Shown here in pieces: positions 1,864 to 40,589 of a DNA stretch of 64,000 nucleotides. How positions within the stretch are numbered: the stretch's first letter is position 1; each line of letters starts with the position of its first letter. The stretch is taken from assembly GCA_004295015.1 (NCBI GenBank), contig SHNE01000033.1, positions 75,421 through 139,420 on the forward strand, in the 5' to 3' direction. A program made the position numbers and the translations under genes. This stretch comes from Bacteroidota bacterium (lineage in GTDB: Bacteria; Bacteroidota; Bacteroidia; AKYH767-A; 2013-40CM-41-45). The notes under the pieces are model-generated. The model saw nothing but the letters and a program-made list of their open reading frames with translations, was not told the origin of the DNA and ran no database searches.

Positions 1864-3189
1864 ATGAATCCTGAAATAAAACCTGCCGAAGGCAAACTTG
1901 GAATCCTCACTGTCGGATTAGGTGCCGTCTCCACAACTTTGATAGCCGGGGTATTGGCTATACGTAATGGAACTGATCTTCCAATAGGTTCTTACTCTCA
2001 ACTTGGAACCATTCGTCTCGGTAAAAGGACCGAGCACAGAAATCCGCTTGTAAAAGATTTTGTTCCACTCGCAAAAATGAATGACATTGTCTTTGGAGCC
2101 TGGGATATATTTGAAGATAATGCTTATGAATCTGCTATCACTGCCGGAGTTCTGGATGAACATAAGCATCTGCACGCCTTGAAGACTGAGTTGGAACAAA
2201 TCAAACCGATGAAAGCAGTTTTTGATGCGGCTTATGTCAGAAAGTTAAATGGGCAGCACATCAAAAAGCTCAAAACAAAAATGGAGCAGGCTGAAGCCCT
2301 TATCGAAGATATCAGAACTTTCAAGGCTACGAATAATTGCGAACGAACGGTGATGATTTGGTGTGCATCTACTGAAATTTACATTGAGCAAAGTCCGGTT
2401 CATCAGACTTTGGAAAAATTTGAAGAAGGTCTTCGTAATAACGACCCGGCCATTGCTCCATCGATGATTTATACCTATGCCTCATTAAAATCAGGAGTTC
2501 CATTTGCTAACGGTGCACCAAATTTGTCTTGCGACATTCCTGCAATGGAAGAGCTTGCACTATTAATGAATGTACCTATCGCAGGGAAGGATTTCAAGAC
2601 CGGCCAAACACTAATGAAAACAATTTTGGCACCCGGCCTAAAGTCACGTGCTCTCGGAATTCGTGGTTGGTTTTCTACAAATATTCTTGGAAACCGTGAT
2701 GGAGAAGTTTTAGATGATCCGGATAGCTTCAAAACCAAAGAGGTTTCAAAACTTTCCGTTCTTGAAAATATTCTTGAGCCCGGTTTACATCCTGAATTAT
2801 ACCGCGACCTGTACCATAAAGTGAGAATCAATTATTACCCTCCACACGGTGATAATAAAGAAAGTTGGGACAATATTGATATCACAGGATGGCTAGGATA
2901 CCAGATGCAGATAAAAATCAATTTCCTTTGTCGTGATTCAATACTTGCAGCACCCGTTGTACTTGATTTGGCTCTATTCCTCGATCTTGCACAAAGAGCT
3001 AAGATGAGTGGTATTCAGGAGTGGCTATCATTTTATTTTAAATCGCCGCAAACTGCAAAAGGGCTTCCACCACAGCATGATATTTTCAAGCAATTGATGA
3101 AATTAGAAAATACCCTCAGACACATTCAGGGTGAAGATCTGATTACTCACTTAGGGCTTGATTACTATGAGGAGTTTATTGAAGCCTGA
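1864..3189 (+). CDS. myo-inositol-1-phosphate synthase (inositol-3-phosphate synthase, MIPS)
   Basis: 441 aa with a MIPS-family NAD-binding N-terminus and catalytic core motifs (…FANGAPN…, …SYNHLGNRDG-like region). Confidence 0.85.
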   Translation: MNPEIKPAEGKLGILTVGLGAVSTTLIAGVLAIRNGTDLPIGSYSQLGTIRLGKRTEHRNPLVKDFVPLAKMNDIVFGAWDIFEDNAYESAITAGVLDEHKHLHALKTELEQIKPMKAVFDAAYVRKLNGQHIKKLKTKMEQAEALIEDIRTFKATNNCERTVMIWCASTEIYIEQSPVHQTLEKFEEGLRNNDPAIAPSMIYTYASLKSGVPFANGAPNLSCDIPAMEELALLMNVPIAGKDFKTGQTLMKTILAPGLKSRALGIRGWFSTNILGNRDGEVLDDPDSFKTKEVSKLSVLENILEPGLHPELYRDLYHKVRINYYPPHGDNKESWDNIDITGWLGYQMQIKINFLCRDSILAAPVVLDLALFLDLAQRAKMSGIQEWLSFYFKSPQTAKGLPPQHDIFKQLMKLENTLRHIQGEDLITHLGLDYYEEFIEA

Positions 3190-3644
3190 TGAATCGTGGC
3201 TTTGAAAAACTCAGTGCCACTGCATTCGGTATCGGATACCTGCCGCTTGCTCCGGGTACCTGGGCTTCTTTAGCTGCAGTAAGTCTCTGGTATTTTCTTC
3301 AGCAAAATATTGTCTTTACCGCAGGTCTTCAGTTGCTGGCAGTTTCAGCTTCAGTAATCATAGGAATCTGGAGTTCGGTTCGCCTGGAGAATGTATGGGG
3401 TAAGGATCCTTCAAAAATTGTCATTGACGAATGGGCAGGGATGTGGATCACTCTTTTATTCCTACCTGCCGACTGGAGAATTCTTATTTTGGCTTTACTG
3501 GTTTTCAGAATTCTGGATATTTGGAAGCCATCGATAATTAAAAGAGCTGAAGAAATCAAAGGTGGTTGGGGAGTGATGATGGATGATATTATTGCCGGAG
3601 TAATAGGAAATGTTCTGATCCGGATAGTTTTATGGATGATTTGA
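3189..3644 (+). CDS. PgpA-like phosphatidylglycerophosphatase A family protein, likely phosphatidylinositol-phosphate phosphatase
   Basis: PgpA motifs GTWAS, IDEWAGMW and DDIIAG. The start overlaps the MIPS stop (TGATG). Confidence 0.75.
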   Translation: MNRGFEKLSATAFGIGYLPLAPGTWASLAAVSLWYFLQQNIVFTAGLQLLAVSASVIIGIWSSVRLENVWGKDPSKIVIDEWAGMWITLLFLPADWRILILALLVFRILDIWKPSIIKRAEEIKGGWGVMMDDIIAGVIGNVLIRIVLWMI

Positions 3645-4087
3645 TGATACAAAAAAAGTCTTTTGTCGGTACTGTAATTTCTGGAGAAACTAAGCAAGGT
3701 GTTAAAACGACAAACTTTTTCACCTATTTAAGATCACAGTTTGTTGCACTAACAGCCACGGCATCTGATTTTGCACTGACTATATTTTTAAAAGAAATTA
3801 TCGGAATTTGGTATCTGAGTGCTGTAGGATTTGGGGCAGCTGTTGGTGCCCTGGTGGCATTTTGGCTGAACAGAAATTGGGTATTCAAATCAAAAAGAAA
3901 TTCAGTACGTATTCAGGCCTTTCGATATGCTGTGGTTGCCGCAGGAAGTTGGGTTTTGAATACCGGCGGTGTATATCTTCTAACTGAATCACTTGATATT
4001 TCGTATCTCTATTCGAAAATTATCGTTTCTATTCTTATTGGCCTCTCTTATAATTATATTTTGGCTAAAAGATTTGTGTTTGTATGA
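3632..4087 (+). CDS. GtrA family membrane protein (polysaccharide/lipid-linked sugar translocation family)
   Basis: About 150 aa with 4 TM helices and a GtrA-like conserved C-terminal segment (NYILAKRFVF). Overlaps the pgpA-like stop; an alternative start is at 3644. Confidence 0.7.
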   Translation: MDDLMIQKKSFVGTVISGETKQGVKTTNFFTYLRSQFVALTATASDFALTIFLKEIIGIWYLSAVGFGAAVGALVAFWLNRNWVFKSKRNSVRIQAFRYAVVAAGSWVLNTGGVYLLTESLDISYLYSKIIVSILIGLSYNYILAKRFVFV

Positions 4088-6651
4088 TGCGCCGATTGAC
4101 TGCAGTTATCCCCGTATTGATTCTTTTTATTCTGCCATTAATCATGACAGGACAGACAGTAGTTCCTTTTACCATCGTAAAAGGAGTGGTTACTGATGCT
4201 GAAACCGGGGAACCTTTACCATTTGTAAATATTCTTGCAGATGGTTCTAAAGCTATGGGGACAACCACCGACTTTAGTGGACAGTTTGTCCTCCAAAACC
4301 TTGAGCCATTTACAAAGATCCGTGTATCCTACCTGGGCTATAAAACTCAAACCAAGACTGTCCAAGCCTACAAGACTCAGAATTTTAATTTCAAATTGCA
4401 AAGAGAAACAAAGGAATTAAAGGAAGTAACGATCAAAGCCGGAAAACGTCGATACAGAAATAAAGATAATCCTGCCGTTCAATTAATTCAACTGGTCATT
4501 GATCATAAGGATGAAAACAGAAAGGATGCTGTGGACGCATATGAGGTAGAGAAGTATGAGAAAGTTCAATTTGCCCTCAGTAATATTACCGAGAAATTTA
4601 AAAACCGAAAATTTCTTAAAAAGTTTCAGTTCATTTTTGAGAACATCGATACTACCAGTCTTAAAGGAAAGGAGATTCTGCCTGTTTACCTGACTGAGAC
4701 AATTTCAGAATTATACTATAGAAAAGATCCAAAAGCGAATAAAGAGCTTGTGCAGGGTACTCGAAAAGTAAATTTCGATAAGTATTTTGATAACCAGGGA
4801 ATTTCGAAATTCATTCAATACCTGATTCAGGAGATAGACATCTACAAGAATAATATTACCATTCTAACGAATCAGTTTGTGAGTCCGATTTCTGACATCG
4901 CTCCAACTTTTTATCGATATTATATTCTGGATACCTTGATGATTGATACAACACGCTGTATTAAACTAGGTTTCTTTCCCAGAAATAAGTCAGATTTTCT
5001 ATTGCAGGGAGATTTATATATCACCCTTGATAGTAATTATGCCGTCAGACGAAATGAAATGGCTGTAAGTCCTGATATCAATTTGAATTTTGTTAAAGAA
5101 CTGAAAATTGCACAAGACTATAAACAGGCAAAGGCAGGAGAATGGATGCTTAATACCGATGAGATCGCCATAGACTTTGGCGTTGGTGCAAATGGTCTCG
5201 GCCTTTTCGGTCAGCGGTCGGTCTCCTATAAAGATTATATCATAGGTGAACCTAAAGAGGAGTCATTTTACAAAGAGATCGTCGAATTTATTCCGGATAG
5301 TATCTCTGATAGAGGAGATAAGTTTTGGGACGATTCCAGACACCTTGAACTGACAAAGTCAGAAGCCGGTGTTATTGCGATGATGGATACCATTCAAAAA
5401 ATTCCGGCATTTCGTCGGGCAATGAACCTTATGATTCTACTGGTTGCGGGATATAGAGATATAGGTGGTTTTGAAATTGGTCCTGTAAACACTTTTTATA
5501 ATTACAATCCGATCGAAGGTGTTCGTGTCCGCTTAGGTGGACGAACTACACAGGATTTCAGCAAAAGGCTGAACCTGGAAATGTATGGAGCCTATGCTTT
5601 TTTAGATGACCGTTGGAAGTATTATGCCGGGGCAACGTATGCTTTGAAAAAGAATTACAAATACAATGAGTGGCCTTTAAAAACAATGAAACTTTCTTAC
5701 CAGGACGATACCAAAATTCCCGGACAAGAGCTTCAGTTTGTTCAGGAGGACAATGTGTTACTGTCCTTTAAAAGGGGAGAAAACACTAAACTGCTTTACA
5801 ATAAGATTTTCAACCTGGAGTATTTGAATGAATTTAGAAATCATTTTTCTGTGGGACTTGGATTCAAGCGTTGGGAGCAAAGTGCTGCAGGTTCATTGTA
5901 TTTTAATCCTGTTGTGTATAACGATTTTCCTCAGACAGAAATTCCTTCACTCACCACTTCTGAAGTGATCGTGAATTTACGTTATGCGCCACACGAACAG
6001 TTCTATCAGGGAAAAACCTATCGCATACCAATGTTTAACCGTTATCCGATATTTTCTCTCAGAGTAGCAGCAGGATTTAAAGGTTTAGCGGGAGGGGAGC
6101 AGGATTACCAGAATATTTCCTTCAGTGTAATGAAACGTTTTTACCCTTCACCCATCGGTTATACAGATATGTTTCTTGAGTACGGACAGATTTTCGGAAC
6201 AGTCCCTTATCCCTTGCTTTCCATACACAGAGCAAATCAAACCTATTCTTATCAGTTACAGTCGTATAATCTGATGAATTTTCTTGAATTTGTAAGTGAT
6301 CGATATGTTGCTTTTAATATAGACCATTATTTCAATGGATTTATTTTCAATAAACTACCTTTACTAAAAAAATTGAAGCTACGGGAAGTTGTAACCATGA
6401 AAGTATTGTATGGTGGAATTTCTGATAAGAACCTGCCTGAGAATAATGCCTCCTTATACAAATTTCCACTTACAAATGATGGTCAAACGCTGACCCATAG
6501 CCTTGAGAAAAAGCCCTACATTGAAGCAAGTATAGGCATTGCCAACATATTTAAACTATTCCGTATCGATTTGATCAGAAGGTTTAGCTACCTTGAACAT
6601 CCCGGTGTTGATGAGATTGGTATCCGTGGAAGATTTAAATTTGACTTCTGA
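4084..6651 (+). CDS. DUF5686 protein with N-terminal carboxypeptidase-regulatory-like domain
   Basis: Signal peptide, a CarbopepD_reg-like beta-sandwich (…VKGVVTDAETGEPLPFVNI…), then a ~750-aa DUF5686-like body. ATGA overlap with the upstream gene. Confidence 0.7.
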   Translation: MMRRLTAVIPVLILFILPLIMTGQTVVPFTIVKGVVTDAETGEPLPFVNILADGSKAMGTTTDFSGQFVLQNLEPFTKIRVSYLGYKTQTKTVQAYKTQNFNFKLQRETKELKEVTIKAGKRRYRNKDNPAVQLIQLVIDHKDENRKDAVDAYEVEKYEKVQFALSNITEKFKNRKFLKKFQFIFENIDTTSLKGKEILPVYLTETISELYYRKDPKANKELVQGTRKVNFDKYFDNQGISKFIQYLIQEIDIYKNNITILTNQFVSPISDIAPTFYRYYILDTLMIDTTRCIKLGFFPRNKSDFLLQGDLYITLDSNYAVRRNEMAVSPDINLNFVKELKIAQDYKQAKAGEWMLNTDEIAIDFGVGANGLGLFGQRSVSYKDYIIGEPKEESFYKEIVEFIPDSISDRGDKFWDDSRHLELTKSEAGVIAMMDTIQKIPAFRRAMNLMILLVAGYRDIGGFEIGPVNTFYNYNPIEGVRVRLGGRTTQDFSKRLNLEMYGAYAFLDDRWKYYAGATYALKKNYKYNEWPLKTMKLSYQDDTKIPGQELQFVQEDNVLLSFKRGENTKLLYNKIFNLEYLNEFRNHFSVGLGFKRWEQSAAGSLYFNPVVYNDFPQTEIPSLTTSEVIVNLRYAPHEQFYQGKTYRIPMFNRYPIFSLRVAAGFKGLAGGEQDYQNISFSVMKRFYPSPIGYTDMFLEYGQIFGTVPYPLLSIHRANQTYSYQLQSYNLMNFLEFVSDRYVAFNIDHYFNGFIFNKLPLLKKLKLREVVTMKVLYGGISDKNLPENNASLYKFPLTNDGQTLTHSLEKKPYIEASIGIANIFKLFRIDLIRRFSYLEHPGVDEIGIRGRFKFDF

Positions 6652-6663
6652 AAATTTCGTTTG

Positions 6664-7386
6664 ATGACATTTAGAGATAAAGCTCAAAAATCACTGCATA
6701 GTATTCTTCATCCTATTGTGAAGGGGTTTATTGCCTTGGGATTAACTCCCAATATAGTTACTTCAATAGGTTTGTTGTTGAATGTGGGTGTAACTATTGT
6801 TTTTATTCAAGGAGCCGAGTATGGAGAGAGAACCGACCTGTCTTATCTGGGTTGGGCAGGTGCTTTAATACTCTTTGCCGGTTTGTTTGATATGATTGAT
6901 GGTCAGGTTGCACGCATCGGGAAAATGTCTTCTAAATTTGGGGCATTATATGATTCCGTTCTTGACCGCTACAGCGAACTTTTTATGTTTTTGGGTATTT
7001 GTTATTACCTGGTTGCTCATCATTATTTTATAAGCTCTTTGATCGGTTTTATTGCGATGATTGGTTCCATGATGGTTAGCTATACCCGTGCAAGGGCAGA
7101 AGGCCTGGGGGTTCCATGCAAGGATGGACTAATGCAAAGGCCTGAAAGAGTTATTCTCATTGGTGTTTCGGCTTTACTTTGCGGGCTCATTACTGAAAAT
7201 TCAGGTGGTCCGCAAAAGTGGAATTTTGAATGGTGGCCTTTTTATCCTCTCGAATCCATTTCAATTTTTGTAATTCCTCTTACCTTTGTAGCAATAATGG
7301 CAAATTATACTGCATTTCAGAGATTGTATACATGTTATGAATACCTGAAGCATAACGGGGATGGGAGAGATGTTTCTGAAAAGTAG
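6664..7386 (+). CDS. CDP-alcohol phosphatidyltransferase, likely phosphatidylinositol-phosphate synthase
   Basis: Motif D-G-x2-A-R-x8-G-x3-D-x3-D is present (DMIDGQVARIGKMSSKFGALYDSVLDRYSE). Multi-TM protein. Confidence 0.8.
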   Translation: MTFRDKAQKSLHSILHPIVKGFIALGLTPNIVTSIGLLLNVGVTIVFIQGAEYGERTDLSYLGWAGALILFAGLFDMIDGQVARIGKMSSKFGALYDSVLDRYSELFMFLGICYYLVAHHYFISSLIGFIAMIGSMMVSYTRARAEGLGVPCKDGLMQRPERVILIGVSALLCGLITENSGGPQKWNFEWWPFYPLESISIFVIPLTFVAIMANYTAFQRLYTCYEYLKHNGDGRDVSEK

Positions 7387-7963
7387 CATTCGAATTTGGC
7401 AGTCTGTTTTTCTGAAAGGCTTTCTGTTTTTTCTGGCGCCATTTGCAGCGCATGGAGCCTTTCAACTTAAACCGGAACTATATGGTGGTTGGAACTATCC
7501 AGTTCCACCGACAAATTCGAAGACATTATTTTATGTGCAGCGAAGCAATAACAATAATGCAATTGTTTACGAAATGAATTTAAATGCCGACAGCACAATC
7601 AACAGAGCAGAGCCTGTTCATGTTTATTGGATTCGCTATTCATCAGATTCAACGAAGGCCGAACTCACTTATATTCAGAAAAAGTATGCCTATGGAGTTA
7701 AAAGTGTGGAGATTGAAGGGAAAAGCGGACAGTTCATTTTGAATTTCGTATCTTATGATAAAAAGAAGTTTTACCTCGTAAAGTCAAGAGAAGGAAATAT
7801 GTATCAGGCATTAACTATGATTGACGGAAAGATGGCTGTATTGGAAAAAGTATTCATCCAACTCAACGGAGGGACTTTTTGGTTTCCCACAATCGATGAA
7901 ATTGTTTTGCATGGAAGGGATCCCTTAACCAAGGAGAAATTAGTAGAACATTTTATCCCGTAA
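7361..7963 (+). CDS. DUF4833-like secreted protein
   Basis: Signal peptide, then a region resembling DUF4833 (…LFYVQRSNNNNAIVYEMNLN…). Overlaps the upstream gene's end. Confidence 0.5.
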   Translation: MGEMFLKSSIRIWQSVFLKGFLFFLAPFAAHGAFQLKPELYGGWNYPVPPTNSKTLFYVQRSNNNNAIVYEMNLNADSTINRAEPVHVYWIRYSSDSTKAELTYIQKKYAYGVKSVEIEGKSGQFILNFVSYDKKKFYLVKSREGNMYQALTMIDGKMAVLEKVFIQLNGGTFWFPTIDEIVLHGRDPLTKEKLVEHFIP

Positions 7964-7964
7964 A

Positions 7965-8924
7965 ATGATTCAGGAGAAAGATACTGCAGTTACAGGAAAG
8001 TCAAGCTGGAAGGGAGTTTCGGCAGTAATGCTGCTTTCATTGATCTATCTGCTGTATTCATATTTCAGCATTGGAATAAGGAACGACCAGCTTATGTTGG
8101 TGGCAATGGTTAACGTGACTTACGTCTTGAATGGAGTTTGGCGCAGGTTTATTCTCGCTTTTTCTATCTTCATTGTCTATTGGATACTGTTTGATTCAAT
8201 GAAATTATTCCCCAATTATCATTTTTCTACGGTAGATATTGAGGGTCTGTATAATTTCGAAAAATCGCTTTTCGGTTTTCAGTCAAATGGTCAACTGATA
8301 ACGCCAAATGAATATTTCATCAGCAACCACAGTACTTTACTCGACATCATTGGTGCAATCTTTTATTTGTCATGGGTTCCTGCGCCATTAGCTCTTTCAT
8401 TTTATTTGTTTCAAAAATATCCGGCACAGTTTCTCCGCTTTTCTCTTGCCTTCTTTCTCACAAATATTATTGGCTTCATTATTTATTATCTGTACCCGGC
8501 AGCACCCCCATGGTATGTTCAGCTTCATGGTTTTGAATTGGACGAGTCAACAAAAAGCTATGCAGCTGGATTGATTCGCTTCGATACATGGAGTGGAACT
8601 AAACTTTTCCAGGATATGTATGCAAAGGGATCAAACGTTTTCGCTGCAATGCCTTCCTTACATTCTGCCTATCCCGTATTGGCTTTCTACTATTCAGCGA
8701 AATTCGGACATAAAAAATTATCCCTCATATTTTTACTTTTTGTTCTCGGAATATGGTTTTCTGCCGTTTACCTGACTCATCATTATATTTTGGATGTGAT
8801 TGCAGGATTGGCTTGTGCGGTATTGTCCATTGTACTTTTTGAAAAAGTATTACTAAAGAGTCCGAGAATCCGGAAATGGATTGCTGAGTATGAAAAATTA
8901 ATATCGAAGAGGCAAAGAGTATAG
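7965..8924 (+). CDS. PAP2-superfamily membrane protein, likely inositol-phosphoceramide synthase (Aur1/IPC-synthase-like)
   Basis: PAP2 motifs PSLHSAYPV and SAVYLTHHYILDVIAG. Multi-TM. Last gene of the inositol operon. Confidence 0.65.
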   Translation: MIQEKDTAVTGKSSWKGVSAVMLLSLIYLLYSYFSIGIRNDQLMLVAMVNVTYVLNGVWRRFILAFSIFIVYWILFDSMKLFPNYHFSTVDIEGLYNFEKSLFGFQSNGQLITPNEYFISNHSTLLDIIGAIFYLSWVPAPLALSFYLFQKYPAQFLRFSLAFFLTNIIGFIIYYLYPAAPPWYVQLHGFELDESTKSYAAGLIRFDTWSGTKLFQDMYAKGSNVFAAMPSLHSAYPVLAFYYSAKFGHKKLSLIFLLFVLGIWFSAVYLTHHYILDVIAGLACAVLSIVLFEKVLLKSPRIRKWIAEYEKLISKRQRV

Positions 8925-9019: not shown

Positions 9020-10192
9020 TTATAACATCGGATGTCTCTCGAATTTTTTCGTCCGGTTAAACAAATAACGGTAAGTTATCAGAATTCGCCCTTTCGTAGT
9101 TCCAAGGCTTTCAGCTATGGCATGCATTTTCGGATTAAAATCTCCAATCCATTGCATTTCATAGTTTTCATAATTTCTTTGGCTTTGAATAATTTTAGCT
9201 CCTTCAACGATCATATAAGTGTCGACACCTTTTCCCTGATGTTCAGGGACTACACCGAAAACAATTCCGATGAATTTATTTATTTTCATCTGCTTCAACA
9301 TCAGGAAAAATCTGAGCTTTTCAAGCAGCCCAAACTTTCCTCGAAGTTTCCCAAAGAGTTGATTTATGTCCGGCAGATTGACCCACATTGCCACAGGTTC
9401 ATTTTTATAATAAACATACCAGATAATTTTTTCATCGATTACAGGCTTCATCTTTTTAAAGAACATCTGAACCTGCTTTGCTTCTAATGCCTTGCCCTCG
9501 CCATGCTTGACCCATGCTTTATTATATACAGTTCGGAAGTCCTCAGCATATTTTTCTATTTGTGATTTCTTCAGGTATTCGGCGCGGTAATCCGGGTCTG
9601 CAGCAATTTTTGCATGCCTTTCGTAAAATTTATCCTGAAGAGTGACACGTACTTTCATGGCATAACACCATTGTTCAAAATAGGTCTGAAAGCCGTAAGA
9701 TTCGAAAAGCTCACGATAGTATGGAGGATTGTAATTGGTTTTGTAACCCGGAGAATAAAATCCTTCTATCAACAATCCCCACCAGCTGTCTCTTTCTCCA
9801 AAATTTATCGGACCATCCATGGCTTCCATTCCACGTTCTTTCAACCAGTCCTTTGCACGGTCAAACAGGAGATGTGCTGCAGTTTGATCATTGACGCATT
9901 CAAAAAAACCAATGCCACCAGTAGGTTGTTTCTCCTTTTTGGAAGTTTTATCATTGATGAATGCAGCAATTCTTCCTATACATTCTCCATTGTCGTTCCA
10001 CAATAGAAAGCGGGTACATCGTCCATGTCTGAAAAACTTGTTTTGTTTAGCGTCAAACACAGCATTCACATCCTTGTCTAAAGGCTGCATCCAGGCAGGG
10101 TCATTCGAATAGATTCGTGTTGGAAGACGGAGGAATTCCTTTCGGTCTTTCGGGCTGTTTATTTCGGTGATTTTCATAGCAGAATGATGCAC
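9020..10192 (-). CDS. GNAT-fold acyltransferase-like protein, possibly two tandem GNAT folds
   Basis: C-terminal acetyl-CoA-binding-like motif (…VPEHQGKGVDTYMIVEGA…). 390 aa. Confidence 0.4.
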   Translation of the reverse strand: MHHSAMKITEINSPKDRKEFLRLPTRIYSNDPAWMQPLDKDVNAVFDAKQNKFFRHGRCTRFLLWNDNGECIGRIAAFINDKTSKKEKQPTGGIGFFECVNDQTAAHLLFDRAKDWLKERGMEAMDGPINFGERDSWWGLLIEGFYSPGYKTNYNPPYYRELFESYGFQTYFEQWCYAMKVRVTLQDKFYERHAKIAADPDYRAEYLKKSQIEKYAEDFRTVYNKAWVKHGEGKALEAKQVQMFFKKMKPVIDEKIIWYVYYKNEPVAMWVNLPDINQLFGKLRGKFGLLEKLRFFLMLKQMKINKFIGIVFGVVPEHQGKGVDTYMIVEGAKIIQSQRNYENYEMQWIGDFNPKMHAIAESLGTTKGRILITYRYLFNRTKKFERHPML

Positions 10193-10396: not shown

Positions 10397-11833
10397 TTAT
10401 TTACCGTTGATGGCAATTTTCTTTTGAAGTTCCATCACACTGGCCTTGAATTTTTTATCCGTCTCAATCAGATTGTTTACCGTTCTGCATGCGTGTAATA
10501 CGGTAGCGTGATCCTTTCCTCCACAATGAGCGCCTATGCTGCTTAATGAAGACTTCGTGAGGCTCTTAGCGAAATACATGGCAATCTGGCGTGCCTGCAC
10601 AACTTGTCTCTTCCTGGTTTTAGATTTTAACATCTCGATAGGAAGTTCGAAATAATCACATACAACTTTCTGAATATAGTCGATCGATACTTCGTGAGTA
10701 GTGTTTTTCACGAATTTATCTATCATTTGCTTGGCAAGTTCCAGCGTGACAGCTTTCTTATTCAATGAAGCCTGGGCAAGAATTGAAATGAGAGCACCTT
10801 CCAGCTCGCGAACATTTGAGGTGATAGAGTAGGCGATGTATTCTACAATTTCTTTAGGGAGTTCAATACCATCAAGATACATTTTCTTGTTCAGAATGGC
10901 AATTCTGGTTTCAAGATCAGGCATTTGGAGGTCAGCGGCTAGTCCCCACTTAAAGCGACTCAATAAGCGCTGCTCCATACCTTGCAGATCTACAGGGGCT
11001 TTATCCGAAGTCAGGATAAGTTGTTTGCCTGTCTGATGCAGGTGGTTGAAAACATGGAAGAAAACATCTTGAGTCTTTTCCTTTCCTGCAAAAAACTGTA
11101 TATCATCTATGATCAGTACATCTATCATCTGATAAAAATGTACAAAATCATTTTGCTCATTATTTTTAACGGAATCAATAAACTGATGAGTAAATTTCTC
11201 GGAAGATACGTACAGCACTGTTTTTCCGGGGTGGTGATTCTTGATTTCAATGCCAATAGCATGTGCCAAATGCGTTTTACCCATTCCTACACCACCATAC
11301 AATAATAATGGGTTAAAGGATGTACCACCCGGCTTATTCGACACTGCATAGCCTGCAGAGCGGGCCAGTCGGTTACAATCTCCTTCGATAAAGTTCTCAA
11401 AAGTGTAATTAGGATTCAATTGAGATTCAACGTTAACCTTTTTCAATCCCGGAATTATGAAAGGATTGCGGATAGTGTTGTTTCCGGAAGTCATTGGTAC
11501 GTTAACCGGATTGTTTCTCAAATCCCCATGACCGCGTGTTGGAATTTTAACGGTATAGGGCTTAGCGTCAGTCTGGGTTTGTTCCATCACGATGCTGTAT
11601 TCAAGTCTGCCATCGTTTCCCAACTGTTGGCGGATAGTCTTGCGCAATAGTGTGATGTAATGTTCTTCAAGCCATTCGTAGAAAAATTGGCTGGGAACTT
11701 CGATTGTGAGGACCTTTTCGTCCAGTTTGATAGGTTTGATTGGCTCGAACCAGGTTTTAAAACTCTGAGCACTTACGTTGTCGCTTATTATTTGCAGACA
11801 TTTTTTCCATACACTGTCGTAAGTCTTCTCCAT
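10397..11833 (-). CDS. dnaA: Chromosomal replication initiator DnaA
   Basis: AAA+ Walker A (GGVGMGKTHL), a DnaA box-binding C-terminus and a canonical N-terminus MEKTYDSVWKKCL. The ORF-track start at 11920 looks like an upstream extension. Confidence 0.9.
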   Translation of the reverse strand: MEKTYDSVWKKCLQIISDNVSAQSFKTWFEPIKPIKLDEKVLTIEVPSQFFYEWLEEHYITLLRKTIRQQLGNDGRLEYSIVMEQTQTDAKPYTVKIPTRGHGDLRNNPVNVPMTSGNNTIRNPFIIPGLKKVNVESQLNPNYTFENFIEGDCNRLARSAGYAVSNKPGGTSFNPLLLYGGVGMGKTHLAHAIGIEIKNHHPGKTVLYVSSEKFTHQFIDSVKNNEQNDFVHFYQMIDVLIIDDIQFFAGKEKTQDVFFHVFNHLHQTGKQLILTSDKAPVDLQGMEQRLLSRFKWGLAADLQMPDLETRIAILNKKMYLDGIELPKEIVEYIAYSITSNVRELEGALISILAQASLNKKAVTLELAKQMIDKFVKNTTHEVSIDYIQKVVCDYFELPIEMLKSKTRKRQVVQARQIAMYFAKSLTKSSLSSIGAHCGGKDHATVLHACRTVNNLIETDKKFKASVMELQKKIAINGK

Positions 11834-11976
11834 AATTGTTTCCAAGAAAAATGTGTTTAGGTATTTGTGTTTCTTTTTTGTAGTTCTTTTTCCCCCTTGA
11901 AATTCAGGAACAAAAATCAAATTCTGTTCTTAAAATTTCGCTAACAAATATTCTTCAAAAAAAAGTAAAAAAAAAA

Positions 11977-20733: not shown

Positions 20734-21846
20734 ATGAAAAAGCTTTTTACACTCAGCCTGTTGATTTTCGCATTCGTATCACCTTCCGCTGCGCAAATAA
20801 CTATAGGAAGTGCCGATTTACCGCATGCTAATGATACATTTCGACTAAGTATAGGTCAAATAACTCCGGGCATAAATGCTACCTTGACCGGGCCTGCGTT
20901 TACATGGGATTTTTCGCAACTCATGCCTACAGGTCAGCGAGTAGATTCATTTATCGATGAAAGCGCCACCAGCACTGTTTTCTCAATTGTGTTTATTGAC
21001 AACTCATTTAATACCAACAGGGCTAATCAGGCTACCGGATCAGATGATTTTAGTCTTGGTACATTTATTAGTTTAACGGGGGTCTTTGACTTTTTTTATA
21101 ATTCAAATGCTTCTTACAAACAGGTTGGTTTAGGTGCCAATGTAAATGGGATTCCTTTGCCAATTAGCTTTTCTCCACATGATATTATTTACAAGTTTCC
21201 ATTGAACTATCCTTCTCTTGATTCTTCCGCTTCAGGATATGCCGTCGATTTAGTCAGCACCATTGGTGTTTACTATAAAGTAGACAAGACTCGAAAGAAT
21301 GATGTGGACGGGTGGGGGAGCCTGACTACACCGCTTGGAACATTTAATGTTCTCAGAGTACATACTACAATCGTTGAAAAGGACAGTTTGTACCTGGATA
21401 CTCTTGGCCTGGGTTTCAATCTTCCTACCATCACATCACATGAGTATAAATGGCTAGGAGCAGGTCAGGGAATCCCCTTACTGCAGATTAATACTACTGC
21501 AGCCGGAGCAATTACCCAAATTTTATATAAGGACTCAGTTCGATCGCTTGTAAATATTGCTGAGCTTGATCAGACCTTGGAAGATTTTAAAATCTATCCG
21601 AATCCGTCCCCGGGAACTTCGACCATTTCTTATTCTTTAAAACAGTCCTCATTGGTCGGAATGGAACTAATTTCTGTCGATGGAAAAGTTTTCAATGGAT
21701 TCAAAACTGAAAAGCAAATTTCCGGATTGCACACTTGCAAAATTAACTTCCGTGAACAGAACATCACTGCAGGGAATTATCTCGTTCGATTAGAGGTGGA
21801 TGGTAGGTCTTACGTACGACCTTTAATCATCACAGATTCCAAATAG
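20734..21846 (+). CDS. Secreted protein with T9SS C-terminal sorting domain (cargo of unknown function)
   Basis: Signal peptide. C-terminal KIYPNPSPGTSTISY…VRLEVDGRSYVRPLII matches a type-A T9SS CTD. Confidence 0.6.
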   Translation: MKKLFTLSLLIFAFVSPSAAQITIGSADLPHANDTFRLSIGQITPGINATLTGPAFTWDFSQLMPTGQRVDSFIDESATSTVFSIVFIDNSFNTNRANQATGSDDFSLGTFISLTGVFDFFYNSNASYKQVGLGANVNGIPLPISFSPHDIIYKFPLNYPSLDSSASGYAVDLVSTIGVYYKVDKTRKNDVDGWGSLTTPLGTFNVLRVHTTIVEKDSLYLDTLGLGFNLPTITSHEYKWLGAGQGIPLLQINTTAAGAITQILYKDSVRSLVNIAELDQTLEDFKIYPNPSPGTSTISYSLKQSSLVGMELISVDGKVFNGFKTEKQISGLHTCKINFREQNITAGNYLVRLEVDGRSYVRPLIITDSK

Positions 21847-28585: not shown

Positions 28586-28879
28586 ATGATGAAACGATGG
28601 AGTAATACTATGTTGACCGGTTTGGTGATCGGAATCCTGGTTCCTATGATTAGTTTCCAGACATATGTATCCTTGTACCGGAAAGGAGAAACGTTGATTC
28701 AGGTTGTGGATCGTTTCATATTTTTAAATGTACTTACCCATGTGATGAGTTTGGCTTGCATCCCCAATTTGCTTGTGTTCTTTTTGTTTTTATGGACAAA
28801 CAATGAACGTTCTGCACACGGTGTAATTGGTGCGACAATTATTTATGCGTTGACGGTTGCTGTATTAATTTTTATTTGA
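28586..28879 (+). CDS. Small hypothetical membrane protein
   Basis: 97-aa ORF with TM helices. 4-bp overlap with lpxB. Confidence 0.35.
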   Translation: MMKRWSNTMLTGLVIGILVPMISFQTYVSLYRKGETLIQVVDRFIFLNVLTHVMSLACIPNLLVFFLFLWTNNERSAHGVIGATIIYALTVAVLIFI

Positions 28880-29997
28880 TGCGATACTATATTATTGCCG
28901 GTGAGGCTTCCGGTGACCTACACGGCGCCAATTTATTGAAGGAGCTCAATAAGCTTGACTCCTCTGCAGTTTTTCGTGCCTGGGGTGGTGATCTGATGAA
29001 GGGAGAAGGTGCAGATCTGGTAAAGCATTACCGTGACCTTGCATTTATGGGTTTTTCCGAAGTGATTCAAAACCTTCGTACTATTCTTGGAAATATTGCT
29101 TTTTGTAAGAAAGATATTTTAGCATATAAACCGGATGTACTTATTCTCATTGACTATCCTGGCTTTAATTTGCGTATCGCTGAATTTGCCCATGAACAGG
29201 GCATAAAAGTATTTTATTACATATCACCACAGATTTGGGCCTGGAAGCAAAGTCGTGTACATAAAATTAAAAAGTTTGTCGACCGAATGTTCGTCATACT
29301 TCCCTTTGAAAAGGAGTTCTATGCACGTTTTGCAATGAATGTGGATTTTGTGGGACACCCTTTACTTGATTCACTGGAACAGAAGAGAAACTCTTTTTCA
29401 TCCCTATCGGATTTTCGAAATAAGCATAAGCTTTCCGCAAAGCCAATAATAGCTTTGCTTCCCGGAAGTAGAAAACAGGAAGTAAGGGTAATGCTTCCTT
29501 TGATGTTATCTGTAAAAGAGTCATTTCCGGATTATCAATTTGTTATTGCGGGAGCCCCTTCTTTGTTGTCTGATTTTTATAAAGAAGTATCTAATGACCC
29601 TTCTGTAAAAATGATAAGTGATGTCACTTATGAGTTGATTTATCATGCAGAAGCTGCCTTGGTCACCTCCGGGACAGCCACCCTGGAAACTGCCTTACTC
29701 GGTACTCCCGAAGTTGTTTGTTATAAAGGAGGTAAAATTTCATATGCGATTGCCCGGAGTCTGATTAAAGTAAAATATATTTCTTTGGTAAATTTAATTA
29801 TGGATAAGTTAATTGTTACAGAGCTCATCCAGGACAAATTGAATACTAAGAATATCATTTCAGAACTAAAGTCTATCCTCGAGACGGAAGCTCGAACCAA
29901 GATGCTTAACGAATACTCTGAATTACTTAATAAATTGGGAGGGAGTGGAGCTTCTGCAAAAACGGCAGAACTGATGATTAAATATCTTAAAGGATAG
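28876..29997 (+). CDS. lpxB: Lipid-A-disaccharide synthase
   Basis: N-terminal YIIAGEASGDLHGANL motif. GT19 family. Confidence 0.9.
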   Translation: MMRYYIIAGEASGDLHGANLLKELNKLDSSAVFRAWGGDLMKGEGADLVKHYRDLAFMGFSEVIQNLRTILGNIAFCKKDILAYKPDVLILIDYPGFNLRIAEFAHEQGIKVFYYISPQIWAWKQSRVHKIKKFVDRMFVILPFEKEFYARFAMNVDFVGHPLLDSLEQKRNSFSSLSDFRNKHKLSAKPIIALLPGSRKQEVRVMLPLMLSVKESFPDYQFVIAGAPSLLSDFYKEVSNDPSVKMISDVTYELIYHAEAALVTSGTATLETALLGTPEVVCYKGGKISYAIARSLIKVKYISLVNLIMDKLIVTELIQDKLNTKNIISELKSILETEARTKMLNEYSELLNKLGGSGASAKTAELMIKYLKG

Positions 29998-38213: not shown

Positions 38214-40589
38214 ATGCGATTTAGCTTTTTACTCCTTTTCATTTTTACTTCAATCATTGGTCAATGTCAACCGAATATCCAATGGCAGAAATGTTTTGGT
38301 GGATCAAATTCAGAATATTCTTCAAAAGCAATTCAGAATTCCTTAGGAGATTTCAGTATTGTAGGAGGGACAAATTCTGTTGATGGCCAAGTAACAGGTT
38401 TGCATCCGGGTTTATGCCAATTTTCTGATTGTTATGACATTTGGATTGTAAACCTTGATAGCAGTGGTAATTTACTATGGACAGAAACCTTTGGTGGAAC
38501 ATACGATGATTATGCTCAATCTGTCGTAAGTTCTCCCGATGGAGGAGTCCTTGTATGCGGAATCACCTATTCAAATAATGGCGACGTAAGCGGTAATCAT
38601 GGTGAATCTGATGTATGGTTACTGAAACTAGATTCAAGTGGTACTCTTGAATGGCAAAAGTGCTATGGAGGATCTAGTTTCGAAGGAGCAAAGGACATAA
38701 TATCAACATATGATGGCGGCTATGTTGTGATTGGATCATCTTGGTCAATAGATGGTGATGTACCTGGTAATCACCGTCCAAACCCTGGCCCTGGTGGAGC
38801 AACTGCAGATGTTTGGATTTTTAAATTGGATTCCGCTGGCACAATAGAATGGTCAAAAAATTATGGAAGTTTGGGTGACGATATAGGCTTTTCCATAGTC
38901 CAAACATTTGATAGTGGGTTTGCCTTTTTGGCAACTAGTGAAACTAGTGGAGGGGATGTAACTGGTGGAAATGGGTACAAAGATTACTGGCTTGGAAGAA
39001 TAGATAATTTGGGAAATTTTCTTTGGGGAGATTGTTTTGGTGGGAGGGGGTCTGATGAAGGGGTTGATCTAAAACAAACACCGGATAGTGGATTTGTTTT
39101 AATTGGAAAAACTGCCTCAACTGACGGTGACATTAGTTACAATCATGACTCAATACATTATGATTCATGGCTTGTACGAACTGATCAATTAGGGACATTG
39201 CTATGGGAAAAATCAATTGGAGGTACAAATAATGATGCCGGTAATTCAGTAATAGTACTTCCGGATTCCGGATTTCTGGTGTGCACAACAGCATACTCAA
39301 CAGATGGAGATATCACTGGGAGTAATGGTTCTACTGAGATACTTGTTTCTAAAATTAGTGATAGTGGCCAGATCTTATGGGGTAAATGCTTTGGGGGGTC
39401 AGGTTCGGAGGACAATGTGGATTTAATTGCATCTGAGGACGGTGGGTGGTTAATTATTAACGAATCCTATTCCAATGATGCCGATGTAAGTGGCAACCAC
39501 GGTGGAATTGATTTTTGGATTGCAAAACTATTTGAACCCTCTGTGTATGAAGCAGCAATTAAATTGAAACCCATAAATGGAAGTTGCACCCTCACAGATA
39601 CAGAAGAAGTAATTCTTCAGATCACCAATTTAGGGATACATGAGTTTTCAAACTTTCAGGCAAGTTATTCCATTAATGGTGGGAACCCCGTGCAAGAAAT
39701 TATTTCTGATACAATTTATCCCGGAGATACATTGTTATATCATTTTATTACCCGTGCAGATTTCATCCTTCCCGGGACGTATACCTTGCAGGCTAACGTG
39801 ATTGTAGTCGGTGATGGACATGCATTTAATGATGTGAGTACAATTAATGTTACTTCTATCTCTCATAATACAGTCCCTATGATAATGGGCTTTGAGAGTC
39901 AGGAATATTTTGGAGCGTATAAAAGTATTGACTTAGATGGAGATGGTCGCTCAGGTTCTTTGGATCTAGGCTACCCCCAAAATGGGAGTCAATGCTATGT
40001 CTTTGCGAGCTCCTTTCTTCCAAATCCAAATAATTGGCTTTGGACACCGTGTATTGATTTAAATGCATTAACCAATTATAAAGTAAGTGGATGGATGAAA
40101 GAATACGAGGTTATTCAACCATATAATCTAGAAATCTACATCAACCAAGAGCCTGACACAACAGGAGCTATCTTGTTAGGAACTGTTCTTACTCCAACGG
40201 ATAGTTCATACCATCCATTTCAATTTCCTTTCACTGTTAGCTCAGGTGGTATCTGGTATATTGGTCTAAAAGCGTATGCACAAAATTATGCACAAGCCGT
40301 GTTCCTTGATGATTTAGAAATTGATCTTTACACAGGAATTCAAGCACAGAAAGGCATTGAATTTTATACATTATATCCAAACCCATTCAAAGACAAAATT
40401 TATTTCAATCAAGAAAACTTCCTCAATGGGGAAATCACAATTTTCAACACGCTGGGAAAGCTGGTTTATACCGGCCAGCTAAAATCTCGCTCATCCATCG
40501 ATTTATCTTTTTTAAATGATGGCATTTATTTTCTGAAATACAATGATGAAAAAGTAACTCATATAAAAAAAATCATAAAACAGAATTAA
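38214..40589 (+). CDS. SBBP-type beta-propeller repeat protein with T9SS C-terminal sorting domain
   Basis: About 7 tandem ~50-aa repeats (W..K.FGG…D.…DGG..V.G.T.S.DGDV.GNHG..D.W..KLD..G.L.W) and a C-terminal Por_Secre_tail-like segment. Confidence 0.65.
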   Translation: MRFSFLLLFIFTSIIGQCQPNIQWQKCFGGSNSEYSSKAIQNSLGDFSIVGGTNSVDGQVTGLHPGLCQFSDCYDIWIVNLDSSGNLLWTETFGGTYDDYAQSVVSSPDGGVLVCGITYSNNGDVSGNHGESDVWLLKLDSSGTLEWQKCYGGSSFEGAKDIISTYDGGYVVIGSSWSIDGDVPGNHRPNPGPGGATADVWIFKLDSAGTIEWSKNYGSLGDDIGFSIVQTFDSGFAFLATSETSGGDVTGGNGYKDYWLGRIDNLGNFLWGDCFGGRGSDEGVDLKQTPDSGFVLIGKTASTDGDISYNHDSIHYDSWLVRTDQLGTLLWEKSIGGTNNDAGNSVIVLPDSGFLVCTTAYSTDGDITGSNGSTEILVSKISDSGQILWGKCFGGSGSEDNVDLIASEDGGWLIINESYSNDADVSGNHGGIDFWIAKLFEPSVYEAAIKLKPINGSCTLTDTEEVILQITNLGIHEFSNFQASYSINGGNPVQEIISDTIYPGDTLLYHFITRADFILPGTYTLQANVIVVGDGHAFNDVSTINVTSISHNTVPMIMGFESQEYFGAYKSIDLDGDGRSGSLDLGYPQNGSQCYVFASSFLPNPNNWLWTPCIDLNALTNYKVSGWMKEYEVIQPYNLEIYINQEPDTTGAILLGTVLTPTDSSYHPFQFPFTVSSGGIWYIGLKAYAQNYAQAVFLDDLEIDLYTGIQAQKGIEFYTLYPNPFKDKIYFNQENFLNGEITIFNTLGKLVYTGQLKSRSSIDLSFLNDGIYFLKYNDEKVTHIKKIIKQN

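Follow-up and report, generated by a model that had tools for sequence, protein, structure and literature searches.

We confirmed seven open reading frames at positions 1864-8924 on the + strand of the 64-kb window (the whole stretch of DNA analysed, 64,000 nucleotides), each abutting or overlapping the next, and they probably represent a version of the Bacteroidota inositol-lipid operon that incorporates two envelope proteins, which may act in lipid delivery. The core inositol-lipid pathway is very probably encoded here, judging by orthology with Bacteroides thetaiotaomicron. This core is already known biology, and the accessory pair, DUF5686 and DUF4833, is plausibly a candidate lipid-delivery module.

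Gene order and flanking regulator

The operon begins with the gene for myo-inositol-3-phosphate synthase (MIPS; 1864-3189), which shares a TGATG junction (1-nt overlap) with the gene for a PgpA-family phosphatase (3189-3644). The gene for a small GtrA-family membrane protein (3632-4087) follows with an overlap of 13 nt, or of 1 nt with the alternative start ATG at 3644 that gene callers choose, and overlaps in turn by 4 nt (ATGA) with a DUF5686 gene (4084-6651), whose product has a signal peptide. Nine nucleotides further on lies the gene for a CDP-alcohol phosphatidyltransferase, the predicted PIP synthase (6661-7386; the gap is 12 nt counted from the ATG at 6664). Its end overlaps a DUF4833 gene (7361-7963) by 26 nt, or 17 nt counted from an alternative ATG at 7370, and a single nucleotide separates the latter from the gene for a putative PAP2_3/AUR1-like phosphoinositol-(dihydro)ceramide synthase (7965-8924). 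Coordinates and junctions re-read from the sequence agree with an earlier sequence-only reading, which had described seven same-strand genes that overlap or nearly abut. Every Pfam family predicted in that reading was matched above its gathering score, the threshold for family assignment, placing the 441-aa protein in the MIPS family (PF07994, 339 bits; PF01658, 113 bits) and the 241-aa protein among the CDP-alcohol phosphotransferases (PF01066, 66 bits). Scans for sigma-70 promoters and terminators gave matches at or below chance level; the sigma-70 model is unsuited to Bacteroidota promoters.

This arrangement is not chance. The order recurs in three assemblies of this organism (itself an uncultured MAG) that are independent of one another, in about 64-67 of 80 DUF4833-containing loci and in the cultured Aurantibacillus circumpalustris. 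The 80 loci include Chitinophaga, Pedobacter, Cyclobacteriaceae, Mucilaginibacter, Chryseolinea and Flavobacteriales MAGs, and intergenic spacing is as tight across these related loci.

A TetR-family gene on the same strand (1188-1817; PF00440, 49.5 bits), 46 nt upstream of MIPS, encodes a candidate regulator of the operon; its place upstream of MIPS is conserved in the closest relatives only (L004, L006-L008). Three nucleotides before its start codon stands a perfect palindrome, TTAACCAAATGGTTAA (1169-1184), that occurs once in the window. The match alone is weak, a degenerate pattern being expected 0.43 times per window by chance; it is position and conservation (same position in loci L001-L004 and L007, a centre variant in L008) that make the palindrome a candidate TetR operator.

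Core pathway and its probable lipid product

In B. thetaiotaomicron, inositol lipids are made by the cluster BT_1522-BT_1526, flanked by BT_1527 and BT_1521 (Heaver 2022, PMC9246714; Sartorio 2022, PMC8791184). When the two loci were compared for synteny, five genes of the window (MIPS, PgpA-like, GtrA, PIP synthase and PAP2) proved to be orthologues of BT_1526-1522, in the same relative order and with identities of 33-59%. MIPS shares 59% identity with the B. thetaiotaomicron-type enzyme; its best match among solved structures is 7nwr (561 bits, E 1.8e-167), named in the output just 'Inositol-3-phosphate synthase'. The PgpA-like protein (PF04608, 144 bits; 43% identity) scores 97 bits against the true PgpA equivalog, whose cutoff is 226, as expected for a diverged function; by sequence it is the BT_1525 orthologue and a predicted PIP (phosphatidylinositol-phosphate) phosphatase, and PIP accumulates when BT_1525 is knocked out (PMC9246714). 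The PIP synthase, orthologous to BT_1523, passes the PIPSynBT1523 equivalog (NF052561, 355.3 bits versus a cutoff of 350), has a complete catalytic motif (D-x2-DG-x2-AR...G-x3-D-x3-D) that is invariant across four lineages, and finds its best solved matches in the bacterial PIP synthases 6h53 and 5d91. The assignment of these three genes to the B. thetaiotaomicron route, already made in the sequence-only reading, is thus borne out by the MIPS identity, the BT_1523 equivalog and the BT_1525 correspondence. By orthology, MIPS would convert glucose-6-phosphate to inositol-3-phosphate in the cytoplasm, as shown in B. thetaiotaomicron; at the inner membrane, on its inner face, PIP synthase would combine inositol-3-phosphate with CDP-diacylglycerol to yield PIP; and the phosphatase would remove the phosphate to give phosphatidylinositol (PI).

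GtrA (PF04138, 72 bits; 33% identity) occupies the relative position of BT_1524. It had been counted among the genes with no established role in the pathway, an appraisal that we revise, as BT_1524 lies within the characterised operon and its knock-outs are published: one showed no lipid change by TLC (Heaver et al. 2022, PMC9246714), and in a second study inositol phosphoceramide (IPC) went down and PI up (PMC8791184). We suggest that GtrA may help PI to reach the periplasmic leaflet, the side of the AUR1-type active site.

There the AUR1-like PAP2 protein would, by orthology, transfer phosphoinositol from PI to dihydroceramide, giving IPC. The suggestion that this protein extends the pathway to IPC is supported. 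It matches PF14378 (99 bits) and PF01569 (32 bits), and the only solved structures related to it are those of fungal AUR1 IPC synthases (E 6.5e-19, residues 58-293). Its alignment with the BT_1522 model runs from end to end, it shares 41% identity with the B. thetaiotaomicron-type protein, and its PSLH and HHYxLDV motifs are invariant. Two observations count against this part of our explanation. The protein scores 296.6 bits against the PI-dihydroceramide synthase equivalog NF052609, whose cutoff is 480, and the 64-kb window contains no Spt (serine palmitoyltransferase), reductase-like or hydroxylase gene. Ceramide might then be absent, and the enzyme might pass phosphoinositol to another acceptor or be a lipid phosphatase. 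We consider this very unlikely: besides the identity, the AUR1 relationship and the motifs, the match to NF052609 covers positions 5-304 of 305, and many Bacteroidota are known to carry their sphingolipid genes at separate sites. The B. thetaiotaomicron-type protein reaches 560.5 bits; the Pedobacter orthologue scores about the same as ours (321 bits) yet clusters with a bona fide Spt, so the cutoff appears simply to leave out the whole clade to which this protein belongs.

The genes joined to the operon elsewhere point the same way. In Pedobacter, Chitinophaga and Cyclobacteriaceae, the inositol operon follows three genes, in the order true Spt, soluble GNAT-like, SDR/epimerase-family (reductase-like), and a hydroxylase is also joined to the seven-gene order; this association supports IPC as the operon product. 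In the window, a 385-aa soluble GNAT-like protein is encoded on the - strand (9020-10177), convergent with the operon. Its match to PF00583 is weak (E 0.0015; 19.2 bits against a cutoff of 20.7), and it has neither a hydrophobic segment nor a solved relative found by sequence. It is, however, 27-29% identical (E 3e-38) to the GNAT-like gene that stands between Spt and the reductase-like gene in the Pedobacter and Chitinophaga superclusters, and is possibly a ceramide-synthase-like acyltransferase. Its membership of the system is uncertain, as it is not clustered with Spt or CerR and adjoins dnaA even in relatives without the operon, which counts against membership.

DUF5686 and DUF4833 as envelope proteins

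The DUF5686 protein (PF18939, 185 bits; PF13715, 70 bits) belongs to the BT_1527 family. Its model, of moderate confidence (pLDDT 72.8, pTM 0.47), starts with a beta-sandwich (about residues 30-105) that corresponds to the N-terminal carboxypeptidase-regulatory-like (NTE) domain of SusC, followed by an alpha/beta domain (about 130-390), a helical segment (393-454) and a C-terminal 16-strand Omp85-like barrel (about 479-855) with the C-terminus ...RFKFDF; the plug domain and 22-strand barrel of TonB-dependent transporters are absent. The top structural matches, Sam50, BamA, TamA, Toc75, CdiB and FhaC, are all protein translocases or insertases. On the strength of these matches, we predict an outer-membrane Omp85-like barrel rather than a soluble secreted protein. 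At the sequence level, the protein matches neither Omp85 nor LolA families: Pfam finds only CarbopepD_reg and DUF5686 and no POTRA, in place of which the model has the beta-sandwich and alpha/beta domain; the isolated barrel half does not match PF01103 even at E<=10; and the conserved L6 VRGF/Y motif of Omp85 is missing. A different loop (R716-D739), between predicted strands 11 and 12, is strongly conserved.

DUF4833 (PF16117, 148 bits versus a gathering score of 23.1) belongs to a family of about 1,900 representatives at 50% identity. Its model, an N-terminal signal or anchor helix and then an all-beta domain predicted to be periplasmic, is confident, yet has no analogue among solved structures. 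In 37 of 71 loci DUF4833 forms part of a fusion with PIP synthase, and one other protein (P0410) combines it with a fatty-acid hydroxylase; a signal-peptidase-like site, ANA|Q, is retained in the fusion linker, where DUF4833 could be cut free. Searchable literature contains no mention of DUF4833 and no experiment bearing on either protein. By sequence comparison, DUF4833 is the sole operon member without a counterpart in the B. thetaiotaomicron locus. For DUF5686, the BT_1527 family member sits beside the B. thetaiotaomicron operon.

We propose that the beta domain of DUF4833 would work in the periplasm, either secreted or attached to lipid enzymes of the inner membrane, that DUF5686 would be an outer-membrane barrel with non-POTRA periplasmic domains, and that after synthesis the two would most likely deliver anionic inositol lipids to the outer membrane or insert them there. 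Such a delivery role for the pair is possible rather than probable, and it is doubtful that they form a dedicated trans-envelope route in which DUF4833 handles the lipid and passes it to the barrel for insertion. They are nevertheless candidates for the step that carries inositol lipids to the outer membrane; if such a dedicated route exists, an Omp85-family protein would handle lipids instead of proteins, and bacterial sphingolipids would have their missing transport step to the outer membrane. Several findings count against our explanation: the moderate DUF5686 model with its lack of a sequence match, the unchanged lipids of the BT_1524 knock-out of Heaver et al., and the fact that IPC is produced and sent to vesicles in B. 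thetaiotaomicron (PMC8791184) with no DUF4833 in the locus. In some loci, the pair is kept under purifying selection with no neighbouring inositol genes, and its function could therefore be independent of inositol lipids.

This persistence, together with the translocases among the structural matches and the possible release of DUF4833 at the linker site, would suit a protein-handling pair, in which the barrel, in the manner of two-partner secretion or BAM/TAM, secretes or assembles either DUF4833 or some other protein. Inositol lipids would then be linked to the pair through co-regulation only, or through a need of the handled protein for anionic lipids. We regard this as distinctly unlikely, given the lack of POTRA domains in the Pfam searches and the model, the repeated fusion of DUF4833 to inner-membrane lipid enzymes, and the way DUF5686 stays linked with inositol genes across very distant lineages and is found, as reported previously, near both types of inositol cluster (PMC9246714).

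The fusions themselves could instead mean that DUF4833 serves the IPC synthase, PIP synthase or hydroxylase from the periplasmic side as an accessory or regulatory subunit that stabilises or activates the enzyme, with no part in transport and with a separate role for DUF5686. Fungal Aur1 works with a partner, Kei1, solved AUR1 entries bear the name 'catalytic subunit', and the DUF4833 gene always lies between those for PIP synthase and the hydroxylase or PAP2. However, B. thetaiotaomicron-type enzymes work without DUF4833; the active sites of PIP synthase and PgpA face the cytoplasm, on the opposite side from the DUF4833 domain; and DUF4833 is maintained by purifying selection, with DUF5686 or by itself, in loci that lack PIP synthase, PAP2 and hydroxylase. 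A subunit role is accordingly improbable, to much the same degree as protein handling.

Least likely of all is a role of the accessory genes in glycosylating the head group, or in anchoring a glycan or capsule to the inositol lipid. GtrA-family proteins are otherwise tied to lipid-linked glycan synthesis (PMC9246714, PMC8791184), and capsule preparations of B. thetaiotaomicron contained traces of inositol (PMC9246714), but glycosylation is without support here because no glycosyltransferase lies in or next to the operon. Of the three functions first suggested for the accessory genes, glycosylation thus falls away, and flipping and export are the readings that the evidence favours.

Comparison with known systems

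Beyond the five shared genes, the B. thetaiotaomicron cluster also has a DUF5686 gene on the same strand. That gene, BT_1527, lies directly upstream of MIPS, whereas its relative here stands between GtrA and PIP synthase; the window has the extra DUF4833 gene, between PIP synthase and PAP2; neither the window nor any of the 80 DUF4833 loci contains the LPG_synthase_TM 'flippase-like' gene (BT_1521); and PAP2 falls below the NF052609 cutoff that the B. thetaiotaomicron-type protein passes. With the actinobacterial and archaeal PIP-synthase route, the operon shares a CDP-alcohol phosphatidyltransferase with the DG-x2-AR...G-x3-D-x3-D motif, and an inositol phosphate substrate followed by dephosphorylation. 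It differs in that the phosphatase is of the PgpA family, the pathway goes on to a sphingolipid and the genes are coupled to those of envelope proteins.

The Spt, soluble GNAT-like and SDR trio of Pedobacter, Chitinophaga and Cyclobacteriaceae resembles the Caulobacter ceramide genes Spt-bCerS-CerR (Stankeviciute et al. 2022, as described in PMC11087976 and PMC11334938) and comprises candidate equivalents, whereas the window has just the GNAT-like gene, 27-29% identical and on the strand opposite the operon. According to the literature, the sphingolipid-producing Bacteroidota studied so far do not carry the three genes together. Fungal AUR1 is the only solved relative of the PAP2 protein, in which the His/His/Asp motifs are conserved, but the bacterial enzyme is shorter and its gene adjoins DUF4833, of unrelated fold.

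The predicted DUF5686 barrel resembles the Omp85 superfamily (BamA, TamA, Sam50, Toc75, FhaC/CdiB). Unlike these, it has no POTRA domain or PF01103 match, its periplasmic part consists of a SusC-type NTE beta-sandwich and an alpha/beta domain, and its genomic partners are lipid enzymes rather than protein substrates. To our knowledge, those Omp85 members that have been characterised act on proteins, moving or inserting them, and not on lipids, which counts against our explanation.

A seven-gene operon with a known enzymatic core

Seven open reading frames lie on the forward strand at 1864-8924, where the sequence-only reading had placed them, and in a Pfam profile search of the seven every family predicted there gave a match above its gathering score. 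They encode, in order, MIPS, a PgpA-like phosphatase, GtrA, DUF5686, phosphatidylinositol-phosphate (PIP) synthase (PIPS), DUF4833 and a PAP2 protein resembling AUR1 inositol phosphoceramide (IPC) synthases. The MIPS/PgpA junction reads TGATG and the GtrA/DUF5686 junction ATGA; the PgpA-like gene overlaps GtrA by 13 nt (1 nt if GtrA starts at ATG 3644), 9 nt separate DUF5686 from PIPS, PIPS overlaps DUF4833 by 26 nt, and a single nucleotide lies between DUF4833 and PAP2. The same proteins in the same order were present in three independent assemblies, the gene calls of which start GtrA, PIPS, DUF4833 and PAP2 slightly later; the long PAP2 frame is supported by an NCBIfam profile match that begins at residue 16. 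The G+C content of the region, which comes from an uncultured Bacteroidota MAG, is about 38-41%. Scans of the operon for sigma-70 promoters and terminators returned matches at chance level, the sigma-70 pattern being ill-suited to Bacteroidota promoters.

A TetR-family gene (1188-1817, +) ends 46 nt upstream of MIPS, and 3 nt ahead of its start is a perfect palindrome, TTAACCAAATGGTTAA (1169-1184), that is kept in the close relatives L001-L004 and L007 and has a variant centre in L008. This palindrome is a candidate operator for autoregulation or for control of the operon. Further upstream is a flexirubin-type acyl-CoA ligase gene, present as its 3' part (81-1070, +; FlxY-like, NF053551 468 bits, below the cutoff of 520), which is truncated by the left edge of the window and encodes 427 aa in L001. 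On the other side, dnaA (10397-11920, -) lies about 1.5 kb past the operon, with metallophosphatase and 5'-nucleotidase genes after it; relatives keep this neighbourhood, and the operon is therefore near a probable replication origin. The window also holds ordinary Gram-negative envelope genes, for LpxB (28876-29997), an LptD_2-family protein (47952-50513, -) and an MlaD-domain protein (51786-52772), and type IX secretion C-terminal sorting domains are found on two of its proteins (20734-21846 and 38214-40589).

We compared the operon with the characterised cluster of Bacteroides thetaiotaomicron, in which BT_1526 is MIPS, BT_1523 PIP synthase, BT_1522 an AUR1-like phosphatidylinositol (PI)-dihydroceramide synthase and BT_1524 a GtrA-family membrane protein (Heaver et al. 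2022, PMC9246714; Sartorio et al. 2022, PMC8791184), and in which BT_1525 is a PgpA-like PIP phosphatase, because PIP accumulates in its knock-out (PMC9246714). The genome-specific portion of a published BT_1526 deletion primer served to retrieve B. thetaiotaomicron-type contigs from human-gut metagenomes; their PIPS (394.7 against a cutoff of 350) and PAP2 (560.5 against 480) pass the NCBIfam equivalogs for BT_1523 and PI-dihydroceramide synthase, respectively. The five core genes have the same order on one strand in these contigs and in the window, with identities of 59% (MIPS), 43% (PgpA-like), 33% (GtrA), 51% (PIPS) and 41% (PAP2). The window PIPS is itself a BT_1523 equivalog (355 against 350), carries the D-x2-DG-x2-AR...G-x3-D-x3-D motif and has bacterial PIP synthases as its best solved relatives. 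MIPS gave a match of 561 bits to the solved structure 7nwr, which we take to be that of BT_1526.

The window PAP2 retains both motifs, PSLH and HHYxLDV, and among solved structures it is related only to fungal AUR1 IPC synthases, yet it scores 296.6 bits on the PI-dihydroceramide synthase equivalog, below the cutoff of 480. A different activity would be one reading of this score. The Pedobacter orthologue also falls short (321) and is clustered with a serine palmitoyltransferase (Spt) scoring 736 on its own equivalog (cutoff 640), so the cutoff would exclude the whole non-Bacteroidales clade. On these profile comparisons the sub-cutoff score probably does not signal a different function, and we regard a change of activity as very unlikely. 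The arrangement is real and the proposal of an inositol-lipid operon is supported; its core is already known biology.

GtrA belongs to this core. It had been listed with the genes that have no established role in the pathway, which does not hold for GtrA as part of the characterised operon. Knock-out of BT_1524 gave no change by TLC in one study (Heaver et al., PMC9246714) and lowered IPC and raised PI in the other (Sartorio et al., PMC8791184). On the strength of the latter phenotype, GtrA would be the best candidate for translocation of PI. A single frame joining GtrA and DUF5686 (P0163, 971 aa, Chitinophagaceae MAG JAQBNU010000068) was found at one locus, L027. We treat it as an isolated case or a mistaken call, probably due to a frameshift or the loss of a stop codon and not a real fusion.

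DUF5686 and DUF4833 as pathway-linked envelope proteins

DUF5686 and BT_1527 are of one family. The counterpart of DUF5686 in the B. thetaiotaomicron-type locus is an 850-aa protein with PF18939 and PF13715, 34% identical over the full length and encoded on the MIPS strand, about 110 nt upstream of that gene. Homologues of BT_1527 (as 'carboxypeptidase-regulatory-like domain protein') and of BT_1521 have been recorded in the vicinity of the BT-like cluster and also of the alternative NTP-transferase/HAD inositol cluster (PMC9246714); our literature search found no experiments on BT_1527. The B. thetaiotaomicron-type loci have no DUF4833, nor does the literature searched mention it. This version of the operon is new in having DUF5686 inside it and in carrying the undescribed DUF4833 as well. 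When DUF5686 was searched by sequence and profile against solved structures, its N-terminal domain alone gave matches, and its middle and barrel halves, each scanned alone against Pfam (E<=10), returned DUF5686 only.

We next examined 80 DUF4833 loci from reference genomes. DUF4833 was accompanied by DUF5686 in 74 of them, PIPS in 71, PAP2 in 69, MIPS and PgpA in 67 each and GtrA in 64; the gene order was nearly always that of the window and the spacing as tight. PIPS and DUF4833 form a single frame, confirmed with Pfam, in 37 of the 71 loci with PIPS, in Chitinophaga, Pedobacter and others (for example, L070 9176-10465 and L035 9185-10459). Past the last PIPS helix these fusions continue with a charged linker and then a further hydrophobic helix that ends in ANA|Q. 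The C terminus of PIPS is cytoplasmic in solved PIP synthases, which would place the fused DUF4833 domain in the periplasm. One representative (P0410, 498 aa) joins DUF4833 to a fatty acid (FA) hydroxylase; P0339 is another example of a fusion protein. Since DUF4833 is thus fused with two distinct lipid enzymes of the inner membrane from this cluster, a periplasmic module associated with the pathway is favoured over a subunit dedicated to PIPS. An accessory-subunit role for DUF4833 could also be read from the fusions, but we consider it improbable.

Four loci (L017, L018, L020 and L028) keep only DUF5686 and DUF4833; the five enzyme genes are absent there, the flanks are common to a full-operon lineage (L084), and the upstream position is taken either by a two-component system or by a gene for a TonB-type barrel. 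Both genes are intact, with dN/dS between L017 and L018 of 0.044 for DUF5686 and 0.070 for DUF4833. In relatives of the window organism (L009-L012, L086 and L087) the locus has DUF4833 alone, beside dnaA and the gene for a 385-aa protein that, in the window, is convergent with the operon (9020-10177, -). Judged by this gene content, the DUF5686/DUF4833 pair behaves as a module. DUF4833 without any partner gene was also seen in L067 (CAVXOV010000029, labelled Candidatus Saccharibacteria), probably a mis-binned Bacteroidota contig.

BT_1521, an LPG_synthase_TM 'flippase-like' gene, is co-regulated with BT_1522-1526 according to published tables, and its counterpart directly follows PAP2 in the B. 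thetaiotaomicron-type contig (L094 7833-8762). No BT_1521 homologue was found in the window or in the 80 DUF4833 loci. The BT_1521-like gene and DUF4833 thus appear complementary in distribution between the B. thetaiotaomicron-type locus and these loci.

A possible route across the envelope

The MIPS, PIPS, PIP phosphatase and IPC synthase steps have been demonstrated elsewhere and would proceed here by orthology, with PI formed at the cytoplasmic face. In enzymes of the AUR1 and PAP2 types the active site is on the side opposite the cytoplasm. Since the Caulobacter ceramide reductase is also periplasmic (Klein laboratory), PI would have to be translocated. IPC is abundant in outer-membrane vesicles (PMC8791184), so the products must also reach the outer membrane, and the Klein laboratory reports that no flippase or transporter has been identified for bacterial sphingolipids.

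No envelope proteins other than DUF4833 and DUF5686 show a consistent link to the pathway. The former would be periplasmic and coupled to inner-membrane enzymes; the latter would be an outer-membrane barrel with periplasmic domains, and its homologues lie near both biosynthetic routes (PMC9246714). Because of this consistent linkage we tentatively prefer a role for the two in the delivery or insertion of inositol lipids, although this reading falls short of an even chance. A barrel with a periplasmic partner, kept in loci that lack the enzyme genes, could instead be a protein-translocation pair; given the link to the pathway, we think this unlikely. Head-group glycosylation, suggested from the sequence, found no support because the operon has no glycosyltransferase, and attachment of glycans by the accessory genes is highly improbable.

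Inositol lipids and sphingolipids of Bacteroidota affect host immunity, antimicrobial-peptide resistance and gut fitness (PMC9246714) and make up much of the lipid of outer-membrane vesicles (PMC8791184). Two specific and testable candidate proteins for delivery or insertion, a problem of envelope transport, emerge from the locus and its relatives. B. thetaiotaomicron, a genetically tractable species, has a member of one of the two families, that of BT_1527, and the full arrangement has cultured carriers in Aurantibacillus, Pedobacter and Chitinophaga. The value of the analysis lies in naming these candidates and in the comparative results on fusions, reduced loci and a sphingolipid supercluster.

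The sphingolipid supercluster

In L030-L083 the operon is part of an IPC supercluster of 10-11 genes (for example, L070 1134-12603 and L035 1036-12064), carried by Pedobacter, Chitinophaga, Cyclobacteriaceae, Chryseolinea and Ohtaekwangia. The order is Spt, a GNAT-like gene (373-395 aa), an SDR/epimerase-family gene (329 aa), MIPS, PgpA-like, GtrA, DUF5686, PIPS (or PIPS::DUF4833), FA hydroxylase and PAP2, and the Spt passes its NCBIfam equivalog. Among the 80 DUF4833 loci, Spt is present in 47, the GNAT-like gene in 58, SDR in 48 and FA hydroxylase in 45. That these genes join the operon supports hydroxylated IPC as the product in this clade; no homologues of Spt, SDR or hydroxylase were found within the 64 kb of the window. 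In Aurantibacillus circumpalustris (CP121197.1), a second gene set (L128 1171-4530) diverges from the seven-gene operon and comprises an MFS transporter, a phosphopantetheinyl transferase, a 407-aa protein with a weak Omp85 match, a 373-aa GNAT-like gene and a second PAP2_3; it may be a second sphingolipid head-group system.

The 385-aa protein of the window is soluble, has a sub-threshold GNAT match and no solved relative, and belongs to a very large, highly conserved Bacteroidota family that is unannotated and has no recorded Pfam domain. GNAT-like homologues lie upstream of MIPS in about 50 loci. We downgraded the gene as a candidate eighth operon member, and its membership is uncertain: the protein is only 27-29% identical to the supercluster GNAT-like protein (E 3e-38), and its close orthologues adjoin dnaA with no operon nearby (L086, L124-L126). 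Its adjacency to the operon may be coincidental. It was also rejected as BT_1521, which is an LPG_synthase_TM membrane protein. By homology, a ceramide-synthase-like acyltransferase is possible.

[quoted passage not shown] In the sphingolipid-producing Bacteroidota studied so far, the Spt, bCerS and CerR genes have been stated not to be co-located. In contrast, many environmental Bacteroidota carry a single cluster that runs from Spt through to the IPC synthase.
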